Assembly: GCA_964373675.1 (NCBI GenBank)
Contig: CAYJVO010000001.1
Location: forward strand, 4,327-68,326
From: an uncultured Candidatus Saccharibacteria bacterium
GTDB taxonomy: Bacteria > Patescibacteriota > Minisyncoccia > UBA6257 > WO2-44-18
Length of the DNA: 64,000 bases
Reading direction: 5' to 3'
Position numbers and translations under genes: made by a program. The notes under the pieces were generated by a model. The model had not been told where the DNA came from. It was given only the letters and a program-made list of their open reading frames with translations, and ran no database searches. Positions 39,370 through 54,171 of the stretch are shown in pieces. Numbering within the stretch: position 1 is the first letter of the stretch; each line of letters starts with the position of its first letter.

Positions 39370-40155
39370 TTACTTCAAATACCCGATCCTTCTAAGCCAA
39401 TGTGCATTTTCCCATTCCCACAACCTCTTTGCCGCTAAAAATGCTTCAAAATCTTCGCGCCAATAAGGTTCTTCTTTAGTTTGTACAACTCCCTTGAGTT
39501 CGCCCCATGCGTGTTCCTCCGGCTGGCAGGGGACTGCGCCCCGAACTGGTGGATAAGCCTTGCGAATTTTTTGCCGACCGCCTTTTTCCCGCAGAGTGGA
39601 TCCGCAACGCAAACAGGTCTTGATTTGATCAATCCGCAAAATCCAGCGGGTTTGAGGATCGGGGACAGCCGGATCTTTAATCAACGCGTCCATATAAGCG
39701 GCGGTTTGCAGATTGTAATCCCGATAAAAATCTAACGAGGTCTTAATATCCATTACGCCGAATTTACCTTGATATAAGGCCATTGTGTCAATAGTGCCGG
39801 CGTAGCCGTGATCTAAATTTAAAATCCGACGTTCCACATGCTCGGGATCAACTTGAATATTGTTTTGCTCAAGAAAATCCACAAAAGCGCTGACGGCCGG
39901 AGCAATCTGAGGATTAATCTCTGGATTTTGGCCAACCATTAATTTTTCCACCGCTTCATGAATTTTTGTGCCTTCCTCGGCTGATTTTTTGGTTTGCTCT
40001 GCTGCCGCCGCGAAACTTGCCGCTTCGGCATAATAACGATACAGTGCTGGCTTGGCTTTAATGCCGACAATTTTCGTTACCCGCGGATACCAAAAGCCAT
40101 TTATCTCATAGCCGCACTGTTCTTTAAAATCTTCGGTGTCTTTATAGTCGTACAT
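39370..40155 (-). CDS. RecB-family PD-(D/E)xK nuclease with Cas4-like cysteine cluster
   Basis: Motif II GTID, motif III VMDIK, a QTAAY (QhxxY) motif, an N-terminal Cys (EQCGYE) and a C-terminal C-x2-C...C. No cas genes or CRISPR array in the window. Confidence 0.65.
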   Translation of the reverse strand: MYDYKDTEDFKEQCGYEINGFWYPRVTKIVGIKAKPALYRYYAEAASFAAAAEQTKKSAEEGTKIHEAVEKLMVGQNPEINPQIAPAVSAFVDFLEQNNIQVDPEHVERRILNLDHGYAGTIDTMALYQGKFGVMDIKTSLDFYRDYNLQTAAYMDALIKDPAVPDPQTRWILRIDQIKTCLRCGSTLREKGGRQKIRKAYPPVRGAVPCQPEEHAWGELKGVVQTKEEPYWREDFEAFLAAKRLWEWENAHWLRRIGYLK

Positions 40156-40256: not shown

Positions 40257-41570
40257 TCATATTTCTTGCTTTAATAATCGGTTGGTGTATTTAACAATAT
40301 CTCCGGCGCCCATCATCGCAACGATAAAGTCGTTGCGAGAGAATAGGGGATAGTATTTAGAGATTAGTTTTTTTAGAATCGGTTTTAGCTCTTTTTGTGG
40401 GTGCTGGACATAAATTGCGTCAATTGCTTTAGCTAATCTTGCCGAAAGATCACTTTTCTCTATCCTCTTTTCTCTATCCTCTCTACCAGCAACGTGATAT
40501 GTCGGCAATACAATGACCTTATCAGCGTCTTGAAACGCCCCCAGAAACGATTTAAAGAGCGTTTTAAGACGTTCTTCTTGATGGGGCTGAAAAACGCAAA
40601 TAAGGCGGTTTTTAGGGTATTGTTCACGAAATGCGGCTAAGGTAGCTTTAATCTCGGTCGGGTGATGAGCGTAGTCGTCGTATACCTTTGCTTGATACCT
40701 GATACCTGATACCTGATACCCAAAATCACCTCGAAATTCCATCCGACGCCAGGCGCCAGTGTATTTTCCTAAACCTCGCAAAATTATTTTGTGTGGTATT
40801 CCTAAGTATTTTGCGACAGCATACGCGCAGCTGGCGTTATAAACATTGTGCTGGCCGGGAACTTTTAAAACCCTTGTAATCTCGTCCAGAATCTTTTTAT
40901 CTTTAACCGCTGAAACTACTGTGCCGCATTGCGTTTTAAATTTTTCAAAAGATTTTTTGACATTGGTAAGATTGTTATAAAAATCTAGATGCTCTTTATC
41001 AACGTTTGTAATCACTGCCACGGCGGGGAAGTAGTGCCAAAACGCGCCGCCAAACTCGTCTGCTTCCAACACCAACAGCCCCGAATTCCCTCGTCGAAAA
41101 TTCGACGACCCTGAGCCAGTCAAAGGATTACGGAATTCTTTCAACTTCGTTCCAAGAATTACCGTCGGATCCATACCGGCTTCAATTAGAACCAGCGCGG
41201 TCATGCCAGTAGTGGTGCTTTTCCCATGCGCTCCGGCGATAGCAATAGTTTTATATTTTTTAGTCAGTTCGCCAATCATTTCCGGATACGATCGGCAGGG
41301 AAGCCCCGCTTTTCTAGCCGCCCTCAATTCTGGATTGTTTTCTATGATTGCCTGATTATAAATTACTAGTCCGGATAACTTGCTAATGGCGATCGGCTTA
41401 TGACCAATAGTTATTTGAATTCCTTCTTTTTTTAACTCATCCGTAATTTCAGAAGGGGATATATCCGACCCGGAAACTGTCCATCTAGCTGACAAAAAAT
41501 AACGCGCTAAAGCGCTCATGCCAATTCCACCGATACCGATAAAGTGGGCTCTATTGCCATTTCGCTTCAT
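40257..41570 (-). CDS. murC: UDP-N-acetylmuramate--L-alanine ligase
   Basis: HFIGIGGIGMSALA N-terminus, GKSTTT P-loop and DDYAHHPTE. Internal start MKRNGNRAHFIGIGG (41570) is preferred over the 28-aa upstream extension. Confidence 0.9.
   Translation of the reverse strand: MKRNGNRAHFIGIGGIGMSALARYFLSARWTVSGSDISPSEITDELKKEGIQITIGHKPIAISKLSGLVIYNQAIIENNPELRAARKAGLPCRSYPEMIGELTKKYKTIAIAGAHGKSTTTGMTALVLIEAGMDPTVILGTKLKEFRNPLTGSGSSNFRRGNSGLLVLEADEFGGAFWHYFPAVAVITNVDKEHLDFYNNLTNVKKSFEKFKTQCGTVVSAVKDKKILDEITRVLKVPGQHNVYNASCAYAVAKYLGIPHKIILRGLGKYTGAWRRMEFRGDFGYQVSGIRYQAKVYDDYAHHPTEIKATLAAFREQYPKNRLICVFQPHQEERLKTLFKSFLGAFQDADKVIVLPTYHVAGREDREKRIEKSDLSARLAKAIDAIYVQHPQKELKPILKKLISKYYPLFSRNDFIVAMMGAGDIVKYTNRLLKQEI
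40694..40721. repeat. Heptanucleotide tandem repeat (GATACCT x3 plus one imperfect unit) inside the murC coding sequence
   Basis: Read directly. It encodes GYQVSGIRYQ in frame (21 bp = 7 aa). Confidence 0.8.
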
Positions 41571-41796
41571 TTGAGTATAATTATAACGGTTCTTTGGTGA
41601 GGATGAAATGTACCGGGACCTGAAACTCATTAACCGGATTCTAAAATTGATCAAAAATGGCGTTATAACCGGTTGGACTGATGATAAAAAATAGTAGAAG
41701 GGGAAATTTTGAACAAAGTGATGGACAGAGCTACGACTTGCAGAGAAGGCGACTGTAATTGCGGCTTTGGCGTGGCCGAGTAACCGCTAATGTTGT

Positions 41797-41836
41797 GTAG
41801 TGAAAGGCGCTGGGGGGGACAGCGCCTTTTTTGTTT
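41797..41836 (+). terminator. Orphan rho-independent terminator (plus strand)
   Basis: AAAGGCGCTG-GGGGGGA-CAGCGCCTTT hairpin followed by TTTGTTTGTT. No annotated plus-strand gene upstream, only a 20-codon Cys-rich mini-ORF at 41721-41783. Confidence 0.5.
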
Positions 41837-42067
41837 GTTATAGTGTCGCACATTATACCTTTTGTAACAGGAGACGACTATAAACTCACTACCCTGCCAG
41901 GGGTTTATTTTTATCAAGCCAGCGCCATTCTGGAACCCTACTTTTGTATTCTTTCATTAAACGGTGTGTCTCTTCTAGTTTTTCTAAATCTGCCGGATCC
42001 CAAACTTTGCATCTTGCGCCTCTGGGATTGCCAGTTGAACTTATGTTGGTCTTAAGGCCCTTATTTT

Positions 42068-43580: not shown

Positions 43581-44852
43581 TTATTGAATAGTCTCGTATT
43601 CGCGCAGAACTAATTGAGAGTCAATTTGCTTCATAGTTTCCAAAGCGACCGACACCACAATCAAAATTGCCGTGCCGCCAATAGTTAAAGTTTGAATACC
43701 GGTTAAAATTTGAGTAATAGTTGGCAGAATAGCCACTAAACCAAGGAAGATTGCGCCAAATAAAGTTATTCGTCCTGTCACTTTAGATAAAAATTCTCCC
43801 GAAGGGTCTCCGGGCCGAATGCCGGGAATAAATCCGCCACTGCGCTGAAGATTTTTAGAAATTTCTTTAGGATCAAAAGTGACTGAAGTATAAAAATAAG
43901 TAAAAACAAATACTAAAGCAAAATAAAGTGCGCCGTACAGGAACTGATTATTTAAAAACCGGTTAACTAATTCCTGAAGACGAACAGAAAGGTCGGGGGA
44001 GAAAACTGAAAATAATTGAGCGAAGAATTGCGGAAAAAGCAAAATGGAAATGGCAAAAATAATCGGGATAACTCCGGCTTGGTTGACCTTTAAGGGTAAA
44101 TAGCTCATAGCGCCGCCGTAGATTCTATTGCCGCGAATCCTTTTCGTATAAGAAACAGGGATCTTGCGCTCGCCTTCATTAATAAATACTACTCCGGCAA
44201 TCACTAAAACTGCCAAAATCACAAAGGCCAAGTAAACAGGTAGGTTGCTAGGATCATAAGAAACCACCACGCCACGCACTAAATTCGGCAAACCACTGAC
44301 AATGCCGGCAAAAATGATTAGAGATACGCCGTTACCAAGCTTTTGCTCGGTAATCAGTTCGCCTATCCAAGTTAAAATCAGGGAACCGGCGGCAATAACC
44401 AGAATATTTTGCAGCATATCAAAAAGACCTAATGGAGCCAGCACTTGCTGGCTGATCAAAAGATTTAAAAATCCGTATCCCTGCAAAGCCGCAAGCGGCA
44501 CCGTTAAATAACGGGACATCCGGCTGAATTTTGCTTTGCCCGCAGCTCCCTCTTCGTAATATAAAGCTTTGAGCGATGGGAAAATCATTGTTAAAAGCTG
44601 CATAATAATGGTCGCGGTAATATAGGGTCCAACACCCAGCATGACGATGGAAAGATTGTCCAAGCCGCCTCCGGAAAAAAGGTTAAAAAAACCAAACAGC
44701 TGGTTTGATGATAAGAGGGCTTGAAGCCGCGCCGGGTCAATACCTGGAACAGGAATAGCTGCTAATAAGCGAAAAACGATCAGCCAAAATGCCACTATAA
44801 TAACTTTTTTTCTGATATCCGGAATTCTGAAAATTTGTAGTAATTTGTTCAT
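43581..44852 (-). CDS. secY: Preprotein translocase subunit SecY
   Basis: 423 aa with 10 TM helices. Sits immediately after rplO in the spc operon. Confidence 0.9.
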   Translation of the reverse strand: MNKLLQIFRIPDIRKKVIIVAFWLIVFRLLAAIPVPGIDPARLQALLSSNQLFGFFNLFSGGGLDNLSIVMLGVGPYITATIIMQLLTMIFPSLKALYYEEGAAGKAKFSRMSRYLTVPLAALQGYGFLNLLISQQVLAPLGLFDMLQNILVIAAGSLILTWIGELITEQKLGNGVSLIIFAGIVSGLPNLVRGVVVSYDPSNLPVYLAFVILAVLVIAGVVFINEGERKIPVSYTKRIRGNRIYGGAMSYLPLKVNQAGVIPIIFAISILLFPQFFAQLFSVFSPDLSVRLQELVNRFLNNQFLYGALYFALVFVFTYFYTSVTFDPKEISKNLQRSGGFIPGIRPGDPSGEFLSKVTGRITLFGAIFLGLVAILPTITQILTGIQTLTIGGTAILIVVSVALETMKQIDSQLVLREYETIQ

Positions 44853-45244
44853 AGGATTTTTCCTCCTGCTTTTTCAATTTTTTCTTGCGCTGATTTAGAA
44901 ACCTTTATTCCTTTTACCGTAAAGGCTTTCTTTAATTCACCATCGCCTAAAATTTTGTTTATGTCCGGCAATACATTCGGATCCACCATATTGCCGCTGA
45001 CTCGCTTTTCTAAATCACCAACATTAATTACCGCCCTTTCTTTTTGAACTAATCTTAAATTCTGAGAACCGCGCAGCTTAGGTAAACGCTGAATGTAGTC
45101 GCGTTCTGCCGGACGAATCCGGTGTCCGGAGCGAGACTTTTGTCCTTTTTGACCGCGGCCCGATGTGGTACCGCGTTTGCCGCCGCGTCCTACCCGCGGT
45201 TTCGGATATTTTCGGTGATTTGATTTTAGTTGGTGTAATTGCAT
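44849..45244 (-). CDS. rplO: 50S ribosomal protein L15
   Basis: RVGRGGKRGTTSGRGQKGQKSRSG glycine/basic N-terminal region. Confidence 0.9.
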   Translation of the reverse strand: MQLHQLKSNHRKYPKPRVGRGGKRGTTSGRGQKGQKSRSGHRIRPAERDYIQRLPKLRGSQNLRLVQKERAVINVGDLEKRVSGNMVDPNVLPDINKILGDGELKKAFTVKGIKVSKSAQEKIEKAGGKIL

Positions 45245-45323: not shown

Positions 45324-45785
45324 CTACTTCTTGACTTTTAATTTCTGCAACGCCGTCAAAGCCGCTAAAGCATTGGTTAATTTATTAGGCGTGCGCCCCA
45401 AACATTTGGCAGTAATGTCTTTTATTCCAGCCAACAGCAAAACTGCCCGAACAGATCCCCCCGCTCTTAAGCCGTGCCCTTCTTTTGCCGGTTTTAACTT
45501 AACCCGTGCCGCGCTGAATTTCGCTTCAACTTCGTGAGGAATGGTTCTTCCGATCAAATTAACTTTCATTAGATGCTTTTTTGCCCGCTCTTTAGCTTTT
45601 CCTATTGCCAAAGCAACATCCGCGCCCTTTCCAATGCCAATGCCAATTCTGCCGTTTTCATCGCCAATTGCTACGGCGGCTCGGAAACGAATGCGCTTAC
45701 CCCCTGCCACTACCCTGGTTACGCGCCGCAAATCCAAAGTTTTATCTTTAAATTCGCTTTTTGGTTTTTGTTCTCTAGGAATCAT
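45324..45785 (-). CDS. rpsE: 30S ribosomal protein S5
   Basis: 153 aa with a dsRBD-like N-domain and GRRFRF-like/VAVGDENGRIGIG motifs. Confidence 0.9.
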   Translation of the reverse strand: MIPREQKPKSEFKDKTLDLRRVTRVVAGGKRIRFRAAVAIGDENGRIGIGIGKGADVALAIGKAKERAKKHLMKVNLIGRTIPHEVEAKFSAARVKLKPAKEGHGLRAGGSVRAVLLLAGIKDITAKCLGRTPNKLTNALAALTALQKLKVKK

Positions 45786-47450: not shown

Positions 47451-47945
47451 CTAAGATTTCTTTAACGGCAACCCGAGTTTTTTGTAGAGCTGAATTGCTT
47501 GCTCGCGTCCCTTAACGGTTTTGGGCACTATTGTTGCTTGCAGCCCAAAGACTTTGGTATTTTCCGGATTAATTTCTGGGAAGACAATATGCTCTTTTAT
47601 TCCTATTGTCAAATTACCATTCTCATCCACATTTTTTAGATTAATGCCTCTAAAATCCCGAATGCGAGGAAGCACCGCCTTAATCAATTTATCTAAAAAA
47701 TCAACCATTAGTTTTCTACGCAAGGTGGCTTTTAATCCAACGATCATCCCTTCCCTGGTCTTAAAACCGGATATAGATTTTTTGGCGGGACGGATTGCGG
47801 GCTTTTGTCCGGTAATTGCCGCCATATCCCTAATAATTTCCGGCAAAATTTTTTCCGCAAAGCCCGGCGTTGTTGATAAACGACCGATTCCGGTATTAAT
47901 TACTATCTTTTCCAGATTCTCCTTTATTTTATTATCTTTAGTCAT
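47451..47945 (-). CDS. rplE: 50S ribosomal protein L5
   Basis: 164 aa, NTGIGRL...GQKP motifs. Confidence 0.9.
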
Positions 47946-50604: not shown

Positions 50605-51105
50605 TTATACGCTTTTCCTTCTAAATAATCTCTTGAAGAATCCCGGCCTTTCTTGTTTGACTTCTTTTTCTTTTTGCTGCTGCGGTTTTAGAGCCTTCGC
50701 CTTCGGTACTTTCTTTTTCTTTGCTTTTTTTGGAGGCGGCATAATTACAAACCGGCTCGCCAGTGGCTGAGCCGCTTCCTCCAAAGTTAAAATTACATGG
50801 CTCATTTTTTTCTGAATCGGGGTCGCTCGTCCCTGGGCCCGCGGCATGAATCTTTTGAGCATTGGGCCCTGATTAACAATGATTTGCTTAATAAACAGCC
50901 GGCTAGCATCCAGTTTTTGATTATTTTTTGCATTAGCAACCGCTGAATGCAGTAACTTTAATAATGGCTTGGCAGATCGCTGACTTCTCATTAATAATTG
51001 GGCTTCGGCTTCCTGAATCGGCAAACCTCGTAAAATATCGGCGATCAACCTGACTTTGCGAGGCGCAATACTCAAATTGTTTAATTTTACTGTTTCTTGG
51101 TTCAT
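50605..51105 (-). CDS. rplV: 50S ribosomal protein L22 with Lys-rich C-terminal extension
   Basis: L22 core (APRKVRLIADILRG), then ~55 aa of extra K/P/Q-rich sequence. Confidence 0.85.
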   Translation of the reverse strand: MNQETVKLNNLSIAPRKVRLIADILRGLPIQEAEAQLLMRSQRSAKPLLKLLHSAVANAKNNQKLDASRLFIKQIIVNQGPMLKRFMPRAQGRATPIQKKMSHVILTLEEAAQPLASRFVIMPPPKKAKKKKVPKAKALKPQQQKEKEVKQERPGFFKRLFRRKSV

Positions 51106-51109
51106 AAAT

Positions 51110-51454
51110 CTATTTTTTTACCCCCTCAGCTGTCGCCTGAACCGCCTTGGCTTTTTCTGTCTCCGATTGCGCTTGCGCCGCCTCCAGTTCACGCTGCATC
51201 TTGCCACCATGTCTGACGAATTTTCTGGTCGGCGCAAATTCTCCAAGCCGATGGCCGACCATTTCTTCTTTAATTGAAACTTCCACGAAATTCTTGCCAT
51301 TATGGACTCCAAAAGTAAATCCCACCATTTCGGGAGCAATCTCCGAACCGCGAGACCAGGTTTTGATAACCGTCTTATCGCCCGGCTTTAAATTGGCTAT
51401 CTTCTTTAATAGCTTCGGATCAACATATGGGCCTTTCTTGCTTGAACGAGTCAT
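51110..51454 (-). CDS. rpsS: 30S ribosomal protein S19 with C-terminal extension
   Basis: [11 protein letters not shown]...[13 protein letters not shown] core plus ~25 extra residues. Confidence 0.9.
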
Positions 51455-53350: not shown

Positions 53351-53773
53351 CTATTTTCTAATTTCTATCTTCCCGCTGTTATTCCCGGGCACCGCGCCTT
53401 TCAAAAAAACCAGCTTCTGTTCTTTATCTACATTAACAACCAACAAATTTTTAATCGTTGCCCGTCCGCCGCCCATTCGGCCAGGCATCCGCCTGCCCGG
53501 AAGTACTCTTTGCGCCGCAGTATTGCCGATTGATCCCGGAGCGCGGTGACGATTTTTTTGGCCGTGAGTTTTTGGGCCGCCGGCAAAACCATGCCGCTTA
53601 ACCACGCCCTGAAATCCTTTTCCTTTGGTAATTCCACTCACTTTTACAAGGTCGCCCTTCTTTACGAATTCTAAATCTGCCCCGTTTTCTAATTTTATCG
53701 GAGTGACAGCAATCGCTCGGTCATTATCAAACGTTTGAGTCATTTTTAACTTTTTACCGCTAACTTTGTTCAT
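53351..53773 (-). CDS. rplC: 50S ribosomal protein L3, unusually short (~140 aa)
   Basis: MNKVSGKKLKMTQTFDNDRAIAVTPIKL aligns with the canonical L3 N-terminus (MKGLLGKKVGMTQIF...). TKGKGFQGVVKRHGFAGGPKTHG...PGSIG aligns with the conserved central and C-terminal region. The ~60-70 residues normally between these blocks are absent. The track ORF starts 15 codons upstream (53818). Confidence 0.8.
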   Translation of the reverse strand: MNKVSGKKLKMTQTFDNDRAIAVTPIKLENGADLEFVKKGDLVKVSGITKGKGFQGVVKRHGFAGGPKTHGQKNRHRAPGSIGNTAAQRVLPGRRMPGRMGGGRATIKNLLVVNVDKEQKLVFLKGAVPGNNSGKIEIRK

Positions 53774-53844
53774 TGGATTTTTACAAAAACAACCGCTAGA
53801 CAGCGGTTGTTTTTGCACTACTGACTAGCCAGAATATTGTACGC

Positions 53845-54171
53845 CTAAACCATCTTGATTTCAATATCTACGCCGGCGGGTAAATTAAGTTTAGATAAAG
53901 ATTCTATAATTGCCTGGTTTGGATTAAGAATGTCAATTAGTCTTTTATGAACCCGCAGCTCAAACTGCTCCCGAGAGTCTTTATGAACGAAAGTTGAACG
54001 GTTAACGGTATACTTTTTAATCTCGGTGGGCAGCGGAATCGGACCAATAACCTCCGCATCCTGACGCTTAGCGGCTTCTATAATCTGCTTGCAGGAATTA
54101 TCAATTAATTTATGGTCATAGGCTTTAATCCGAAGCCGTAATTTTTCTTTTTCAACTTCCTTCTTTACCAT
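53845..54171 (-). CDS. rpsJ: 30S ribosomal protein S10
   Basis: [15 protein letters not shown]...[20 protein letters not shown] motifs. Confidence 0.9.

Follow-up and report, generated by a model that had tools for sequence, protein, structure and literature searches.

A minimal ribosomal protein uL3 without its solvent-side lobe in CPR bacteria, with indications of repeated loss

The rplC gene described here is most probably a functional gene of a Parcubacteria/Paceibacteria-type CPR bacterium, and it encodes a minimal ribosomal protein uL3 that lacks an internal lobe of about 63 residues, a lobe that appears to have been lost at least three times independently within the CPR. The probability of this reading as a whole is put at about 0.88. 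The gene lies at positions 53351–53773 on the reverse strand of the window, by which is meant the whole 64-kb stretch of DNA that was analysed. uL3 is a primary rRNA-binding assembly protein of the large ribosomal subunit, and it is also used as a universal phylogenetic and completeness marker.

The open reading frame starts with an ATG at position 53773 and encodes 140 amino acid residues, beginning with MNKVSGKKLKMTQTF, followed by a stop codon. It occupies the canonical S10-operon slot between rpsJ (S10; 53845–54171, reverse strand; Pfam Ribosomal_S10, 121 bits) upstream and rplD (L4; 52718–53332, reverse strand; Pfam Ribosomal_L4, 212 bits) downstream, and the same arrangement is found in relatives. 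fusA and tuf lie further upstream, and on the downstream side come rplW, rplB and the remaining S10/spc genes. The encoded protein matches the Pfam family Ribosomal_L3 (PF00297) with 51.3 bits against a cut-off of 22. It also matches the bacterial L3 family TIGR03625 (L3_bact) with 144.4 bits against a cut-off of 142.9, and so clears it by a margin of just 1.5 bits. This latter match does not extend from end to end. The protein aligns to profile positions 95–202 of 202 only, positions ~30–94 have no counterpart in it, and the N-terminal ~30 residues align weakly by themselves (5 bits). Against the archaeal profile L3_arch the alignment starts only at position 187 of 331, and against the Pfam model only at position 212 of 369. 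The reading frame is intact, with neither an in-frame stop nor a frameshift. The gene at 53351–53773 is a genuine, intact gene for ribosomal protein L3.

The public gene call for this locus (P0001, in both NCBI and Logan) is 155 aa long, starts from a GTG at position 53818 and runs through a hairpin in the rpsJ-rplC spacer. The N-termini of homologues (MxKxxGKKLKMTQ) favour the ATG at 53773 over this GTG, and the public call is therefore 15 codons too long (53774–53818, reverse strand).

Alignment with MAFFT to full-length relatives and to E. coli RplC (209 aa, reference sequence from NC_000913) reveals a single contiguous gap in the window protein, anchored by I26 (E. coli I27) on one side and F54 (E. 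coli F118) on the other. Along the protein, with all coordinates on the reverse strand, residues 1–26 (53696–53773) make up the N-terminal barrel β-strands (GKKLKMTQ.F...VTPI) and correspond to E. coli residues 1–27. Residues 27–39 (KLENGADLEFVKK; 53657–53695) constitute the junction, where 13 residues stand in place of 76 in E. coli (28–103); the net loss is 63 residues and the missing part corresponds to E. coli ~28/31–93. Residues 40–60 (53594–53656) contain a barrel strand and the KGKGFQGVVKR motif, with invariant or near-invariant columns. Residues 61–100 (53474–53593) form the retained extended loop HGFAGGPKTHGQKNRHRAPGSIGNTAAQRVLPGRRMPGRMG, which is PTC-proximal and corresponds to E. 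coli ~125–166. Residues 101–140 and the stop codon (53351–53473) provide the C-terminal barrel strands (TIKNLLVVNVD...LVFLKGAVPG...KIEIRK). The same split is seen with phmmer against PDB chains, where residues 7–38 match S. aureus uL3 residues 4–36 and residues 37–142 match residues 106–211, in a numbering of the window protein that runs +3 as three upstream codons were included. The missing lobe is present in all of the solved uL3 structures that were matched (83 distinct PDB sequences).

These results agree with a preliminary description of the DNA, which had placed rplC at these coordinates, had given its product as ~140 aa against ~210, and had held that ~60–70 residues (E. coli ~30–95) were missing between an N-terminus and later conserved blocks that both align to bacterial L3. 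That the difference is a deletion and not a divergence is likewise supported. The contrary reading, that the lobe is still there and has merely diverged past alignment, is so improbable as to be negligible: the weak N-terminal HMM score is all that speaks for it, while the distance from the VTPI strand to the GDxVxVSG strand is 13 residues against 76 in E. coli, and the whole protein is 140 aa long.

A lobe that is missing from the protein could in principle be encoded elsewhere in the genome, by a split gene or by a second, full-length rplC. A profile of the missing block was built from 152 full-length uL3 sequences and was searched with hmmsearch against all six frames of the 64-kb window (1419 stop-to-stop frames), with no significant match (best E=0.075, in the S17 ORF). 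Likewise, tblastn searches with the whole of E. coli L3 and with residues 26–105 alone found no second rplC in the 64-kb window. The preliminary description had seen no sign of a frameshift or an unannotated intron in the sequence, and the intact reading frame and the empty block search bear this out. The part of the genome inspected is 64 kb, which leaves some room for a split or duplicated gene. However, all of the relatives examined have the short gene in the canonical slot between rpsJ and rplD, and this explanation is judged very unlikely.

Assembly collapse, chimerism and pseudogene decay were also considered as origins of the short gene. Ribosomal protein genes of abnormal length do occur in metagenomes, as Tsurumaki et al. 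(PMC9297842) warn, and one chimeric uL3 (P0225) is present among the public representatives. Against this, the Logan assembly of ERR3478686, which is independent of the assembly of the window, contains an identical S10-L3-L4 stretch. Moreover, the best 120 homologues in a collection of 5.8 billion proteins are all 129–165 aa long and come from NCBI, JGI, ENA and Logan, with Candidatus Harrisonbacteria and Parcubacteria as the named relatives. The short architecture is found in every classifiable sequence among them (119/119), across many samples and assemblers. The intact reading frame, the canonical operon slot, the invariant functional motifs and a confidently modelled AF2 barrel (see below) also argue against an artefact or a pseudogene, which is extremely improbable.

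When 351 uL3 sequences are aligned jointly, the length of the segment corresponding to E. coli 28–100 is bimodal, with 5–14 aa in 158 sequences and mostly 65–80 aa in full-length ones, and 19 sequences fall into an intermediate class; as short forms served as seeds of the searches, these counts do not represent frequencies. Among representatives of clusters at 50% identity, 32 of the 132 usable sequences are short and 14 are intermediate. The deletion is demonstrably real, in frame, under purifying selection and widespread.

The chimeric representative P0225 is a 210-aa “uL3” whose N-terminal half is proteobacterial-like and whose C-terminal half barely differs from the short CPR form L005. 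The two halves are joined at the conserved KGKGF motif, almost certainly through chimeric metagenome assembly, and such a sequence can mislead single-gene trees. Its apparent position as a full-length sister of short L005 (73% bootstrap) was discarded once inspection revealed the chimera.

The motifs of the barrel and of the PTC loop are all retained in the window protein. The loop that approaches the PTC (E. coli ~126–166; HG..HR.PGSIG.., including G147–Q150) is fully kept in the window protein, where it reads HGQKNRHRAPGSIGNTAAQRVLPGRRMPGRMG (residues ~70–101) and aligns to E. coli H134–G166. This loop is the region of lowest entropy in uL3, with 0.66 bits in short forms and 1.16 bits in full-length forms. 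Both the KGKGFxGxxKR motif and the extended loop containing PGSIG are present, and residues K50, G53, F54, G56, R60, P79, G80, S81, I82 and G83 are invariant across 45 to 120 sequences. The entropy of the lobe in full-length uL3 is 2.23 bits compared to ~1.9 bits for the barrel strands. The lobe is thus just moderately less conserved than the barrel, and its dispensability in other bacteria is not obvious.

An AF2 model of the window protein, made with 120 homologues, has a mean pLDDT of 77 and reaches ~90 in the barrel. Its strands comprise residues 3–8, 12–16 and 19–28 (pLDDT ~87–91), 42–48 and 51–54, and 104–116, 121–125 and 135–139 (pLDDT ~90). Confidence is low at residues 56–100, as is expected for an extension embedded in rRNA. 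The 50 Foldseek matches listed for this model in the PDB are all uL3, with E values down to 2.6e-11, and the fold is a β-barrel. A full-length Parcubacteria relative (201 aa) was modelled with a mean pLDDT of 85 and with the lobe at ~97, and this model superposes over its whole length on solved uL3 with a TM-score of 0.79, or up to 0.86 on chains from assembly intermediates. The lobe of the relative is composed of strands at 31–37, 46–51 and 73–78 and helices at 39–42, 59–64 and 81–86. As judged from these models, the deletion took away an accessory lobe, consisting of three β-strands and short helices, that belongs to the globular domain on the solvent side and is inserted between barrel strands in full-length uL3. 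What is left in the short uL3 is a six-stranded barrel core with the PTC loop, for which a closed barrel is the predicted fold. The preliminary description had supposed that the missing part extends toward the peptidyl-transferase centre; this was mistaken, as the PTC loop is kept and is the most conserved part of the protein, and the lost part is the solvent-side lobe.

The short form is not confined to the close relatives of the window. Four types of PTC loop can be told apart by their signatures: type A (HGQKNRxR), to which the window protein belongs; type B (QKHSEREPG...GMRMAGRMG.DRIT), found in Nomura-, Taylor-, Yonath- and Vogelbacteria; type C (HGQSDRxR); and type D (HGHKDxxR). Short, intermediate and full-length members occur in each of the four types. 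A single-gene neighbour-joining tree of L3 was tried for counting deletion events and was set aside, as its bootstraps were too low and its Fitch count of 24 changes was mostly noise. In its place, the count rests on a neighbour-joining tree of the neighbouring proteins S10, L4, L23 and L2 (654 columns, L3 excluded, 500 bootstraps).

In this neighbour-protein tree, the clade of the window (90% bootstrap) contains 7 short taxa including the window, 3 full-length taxa (a Wolfebacteria and two Parcubacteria/Paceibacterota genomes) and 1 intermediate. In the Nomura/Taylor-type clade (94–100%), the short forms L027 and L063 (a Nomurabacteria) lie among 15–16 full-length taxa. In addition, short L083 pairs with full-length L044 (99%). 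On the single-gene L3 tree, short P0250 and full-length P0221 form a pair with 97% bootstrap. Short forms are thus nested with full-length forms in three clades, and as the regain of a homologous block of 63 residues is implausible, the trees indicate that the lobe was probably deleted independently at least three times in the CPR. The window clade may account for one or for two events, as its two short groups are separated by weakly supported nodes (39–52%).

The main competitor of repeated loss is one ancient deletion within one CPR lineage, with the other short forms explained by transfer of a short allele or by phylogenetic noise. Such a history could draw on the poor resolution of single-gene L3 trees, and the two short groups of the window clade could be sisters across their weakly supported nodes. 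However, the short forms of other clades bear the loop signature of their own clade (e.g., QKHSEREPG...GMRMAGRMG.DRIT), which argues against gene transfer, and they are distributed across splits of 94–100% support with full-length forms on both sides. Moreover, the junction is 7–20 aa long among the short forms of other lineages and its sequence differs between clades, and intermediates occur in all four signature types. One deletion is consequently rated as unlikely, and repeated loss is preferred.

The intermediates add a second aspect to the repeated losses. L009, L062 and P0122 (~182–196 aa) lack only the helical KPxxGHxKxxG stretch and keep the β-strands of the lobe, a pattern that suggests, from the alignments, that the lobe may have eroded stepwise. 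The direction of change could also be turned around, such that the short form would be ancestral and the lobe an insertion gained by other bacteria. CPR bacteria have been proposed as early diverging (abstract of bioRxiv 2024.11.29.625318), which would suit this polarity. In contrast, full-length uL3 with the homologous block is found throughout the CPR and in all of the non-CPR bacteria sampled, this stretch is longer still in the uL3 profiles of archaea and eukaryotes, and the short forms are nested inside full-length clades. An ancestral short form is exceedingly improbable, and deletion from a full-length uL3 is retained as the explanation. Of the statement in the preliminary description that this is a genuine, lineage-specific reduction, the first half holds, on the strength of the Logan assembly and the homologues. 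The second half does not, as the short form occurs in several CPR sub-lineages that also contain full-length forms, and the lobe was probably lost repeatedly.

Several records outside the named CPR groups were inspected as well. A short uL3 labelled “Clostridia bacterium” (P0361) was rejected as a non-CPR example: its operon is CPR-type, with no uL30 and a uL2 of 247 aa, and the label is therefore unreliable. The short uL3 P0311, labelled “Cloacimonetes”, is found on contigs shorter than 5 kb. A Dehalococcoidales genome (L017) shows a shortening of ~12 residues at the same place in uL3. The taxonomic labels of metagenome-assembled genomes look unreliable for several records, including L083 (JGI 3300031673 Ga0307377_10000083) and the GTDB loci L003–L011, and a large number of records that carry the title “uncultured Candidatus Saccharibacteria” group with Parcubacteria (e.g., Wolfebacteria, Harrisonbacteria).

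The spacer between rpsJ and rplC has features of its own. This 75-nt region has a folding energy of -24.8 kcal/mol (z = -4.4) and contains a hairpin at 53782–53817 (reverse strand) with a perfect 16-bp stem, GCAAAAACAACCGCU-GUCU-AGCGGUUGUUUUUGU, in which an A-tract is paired with a U-tract. The hairpin ends ~8 nt before the ATG of rplC. Similar hairpins (A-tract, CAAC, GC stem, GUUG, U-tract) with other stems (CAACCGGG, CAACAGGG) are found in the rpsJ-rplC spacers of the relatives L004, L007 and L011; the hairpin abuts the rplC start in L011 and lies in mid-spacer in L007. The hairpin resembles a terminator or attenuator that would separate tuf-rpsJ from the rplC operon. It is preceded by TTGAAA-17-TACAAT (53864–53836), a weak promoter-like site of a kind that is no commoner here than expected by chance.

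The remainder of the ribosomal protein cluster in the window (all genes on the reverse strand) has a CPR-type gene set. uS5 (45324–45785) is directly followed by uL15 (44849–45244), with no uL30 gene between them. The absence of uL30 from this position is a hallmark of the CPR. uL15 is short (131 aa), as is uL5 (47451–47945; 164 aa), whose N-terminal Pfam domain starts at profile position 8. No rRNA was found in the 64-kb window. At the other end of the cluster, map is often followed by infA, rpmJ and rpsM. Here, the ORFs just downstream of map, at 41663–41917 (84 aa) and 39370–40155 (261 aa), have no Pfam match, and a Mur-ligase gene (40257–41654) lies between the two. The cluster of this genome therefore ends at map. 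Two further proteins have extended C-termini. uL22 (50605–51105; 166 aa) carries a Lys-rich extension of ~55 residues past its Pfam domain, and uS19 (51110–51454; 114 aa) has a tail of ~30 residues rich in Ala, Lys, Glu and Gln, which resembles the alanine- and lysine-rich tail of Parcubacteria uS19 described in PMC9297842.

If the short uL3 works as its retained parts suggest, it would still nucleate or stabilise domain VI of the 23S rRNA through its barrel and would still reach the PTC through its loop, and the peripheral solvent-side contacts made by the lobe would be given up. The loss could be tolerated if slow growth makes these contacts unnecessary, or if neighbours such as the rRNA or extensions of bL19 and bL32 make up for them. 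A more far-reaching proposal, and a tentative one whose probability is well short of even, is that the lobe of uL3 is a module that CPR bacteria have discarded on at least three occasions and in steps, with the helix going before the whole lobe, that the barrel and PTC loop represent the minimal working uL3, and that the repeated loss marks a co-evolving remodelling of the 50S subunit at the corner that 23S domain VI and the 3′ end form, via rRNA truncations or extensions of the bL19/bL32 type. A natural uL3 of 140 aa would in any case mean that the barrel and the PTC loop are indispensable and that the solvent-side lobe is not. A protein of this kind would be useful for the design of minimal ribosomes and for understanding the assembly of 23S domain VI.

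The short form also has practical consequences for annotation. Ten short uL3 were scored with TIGR03625, and four of them miss the cut-off of 142.9: P0006 from a Harrisonbacteria (142.5), P0085 (140.1), L063 from a Nomurabacteria (137.8) and P0212 (126.5). The window protein passes, as do five other short uL3 with scores of 148–165. As the short uL3 straddle the cut-off, pipelines that apply trusted cut-offs can miss this marker, or fail to name it, in some CPR genomes. Furthermore, short uL3 put a gap of ~63 columns into concatenated alignments of ribosomal proteins. Both effects can bias the annotation, completeness estimates and marker-based trees of these CPR lineages.

A uL3 without its internal region has been reported before. 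Tsurumaki, Saito, Tomita and Kanai (2022, RNA 28:1041; PMC9297842) described it in some CPR bacteria, and the present finding is thus a rediscovery. The reduction appears there only in Supplemental Fig. S4, and the main text gives no boundaries, structural assignment or count of lineages or events. In the literature searched, uL3 is named alongside Parcubacteria only in that paper and in two reviews. What is added here is modest: the boundaries (E. coli ~28/31–93), the identity of the lost lobe, the case for at least three stepwise losses, and the problem with the marker threshold. A literature search for a solved CPR ribosome structure, or for an account of the contacts of the uL3 lobe, found none that was usable.

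[quoted passage not shown] The window as a whole likewise fits the CPR gene set described in PMC9297842, with no uL30 between S5 and L15, a short uL5 and uL15, and a uS19 tail rich in alanine and lysine. Compared to E. coli RplC (209 aa; TIGR03625/PF00297), the window protein has the same operon slot, GKK.GMT strand, KGKGF.G..KR motif, PGSIG loop, C-terminal barrel and KGAVPG block. It is 42–50% identical to canonical bacterial uL3 over the common part and has the same fold by Foldseek, but it lacks the 63-residue lobe and is barely recognized by TIGR03625. In the published picture, CPR ribosomes lose surface-exposed elements, and the same paper lists bL19 and bL32 as enlarged in the CPR. The loss of a solvent-side lobe from uL3 fits this general surface trimming, and the other reductions of the large subunit in the CPR, which affect the termini of uL13, the N-termini of uL2 and uL5 and the C-terminus of uL15 and include the loss of uL30, uL1 and bL9, follow the same trend. 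Unlike these, in which a terminal tail or a whole peripheral protein is lost, the uL3 of the window has had an internal folded sub-domain excised.
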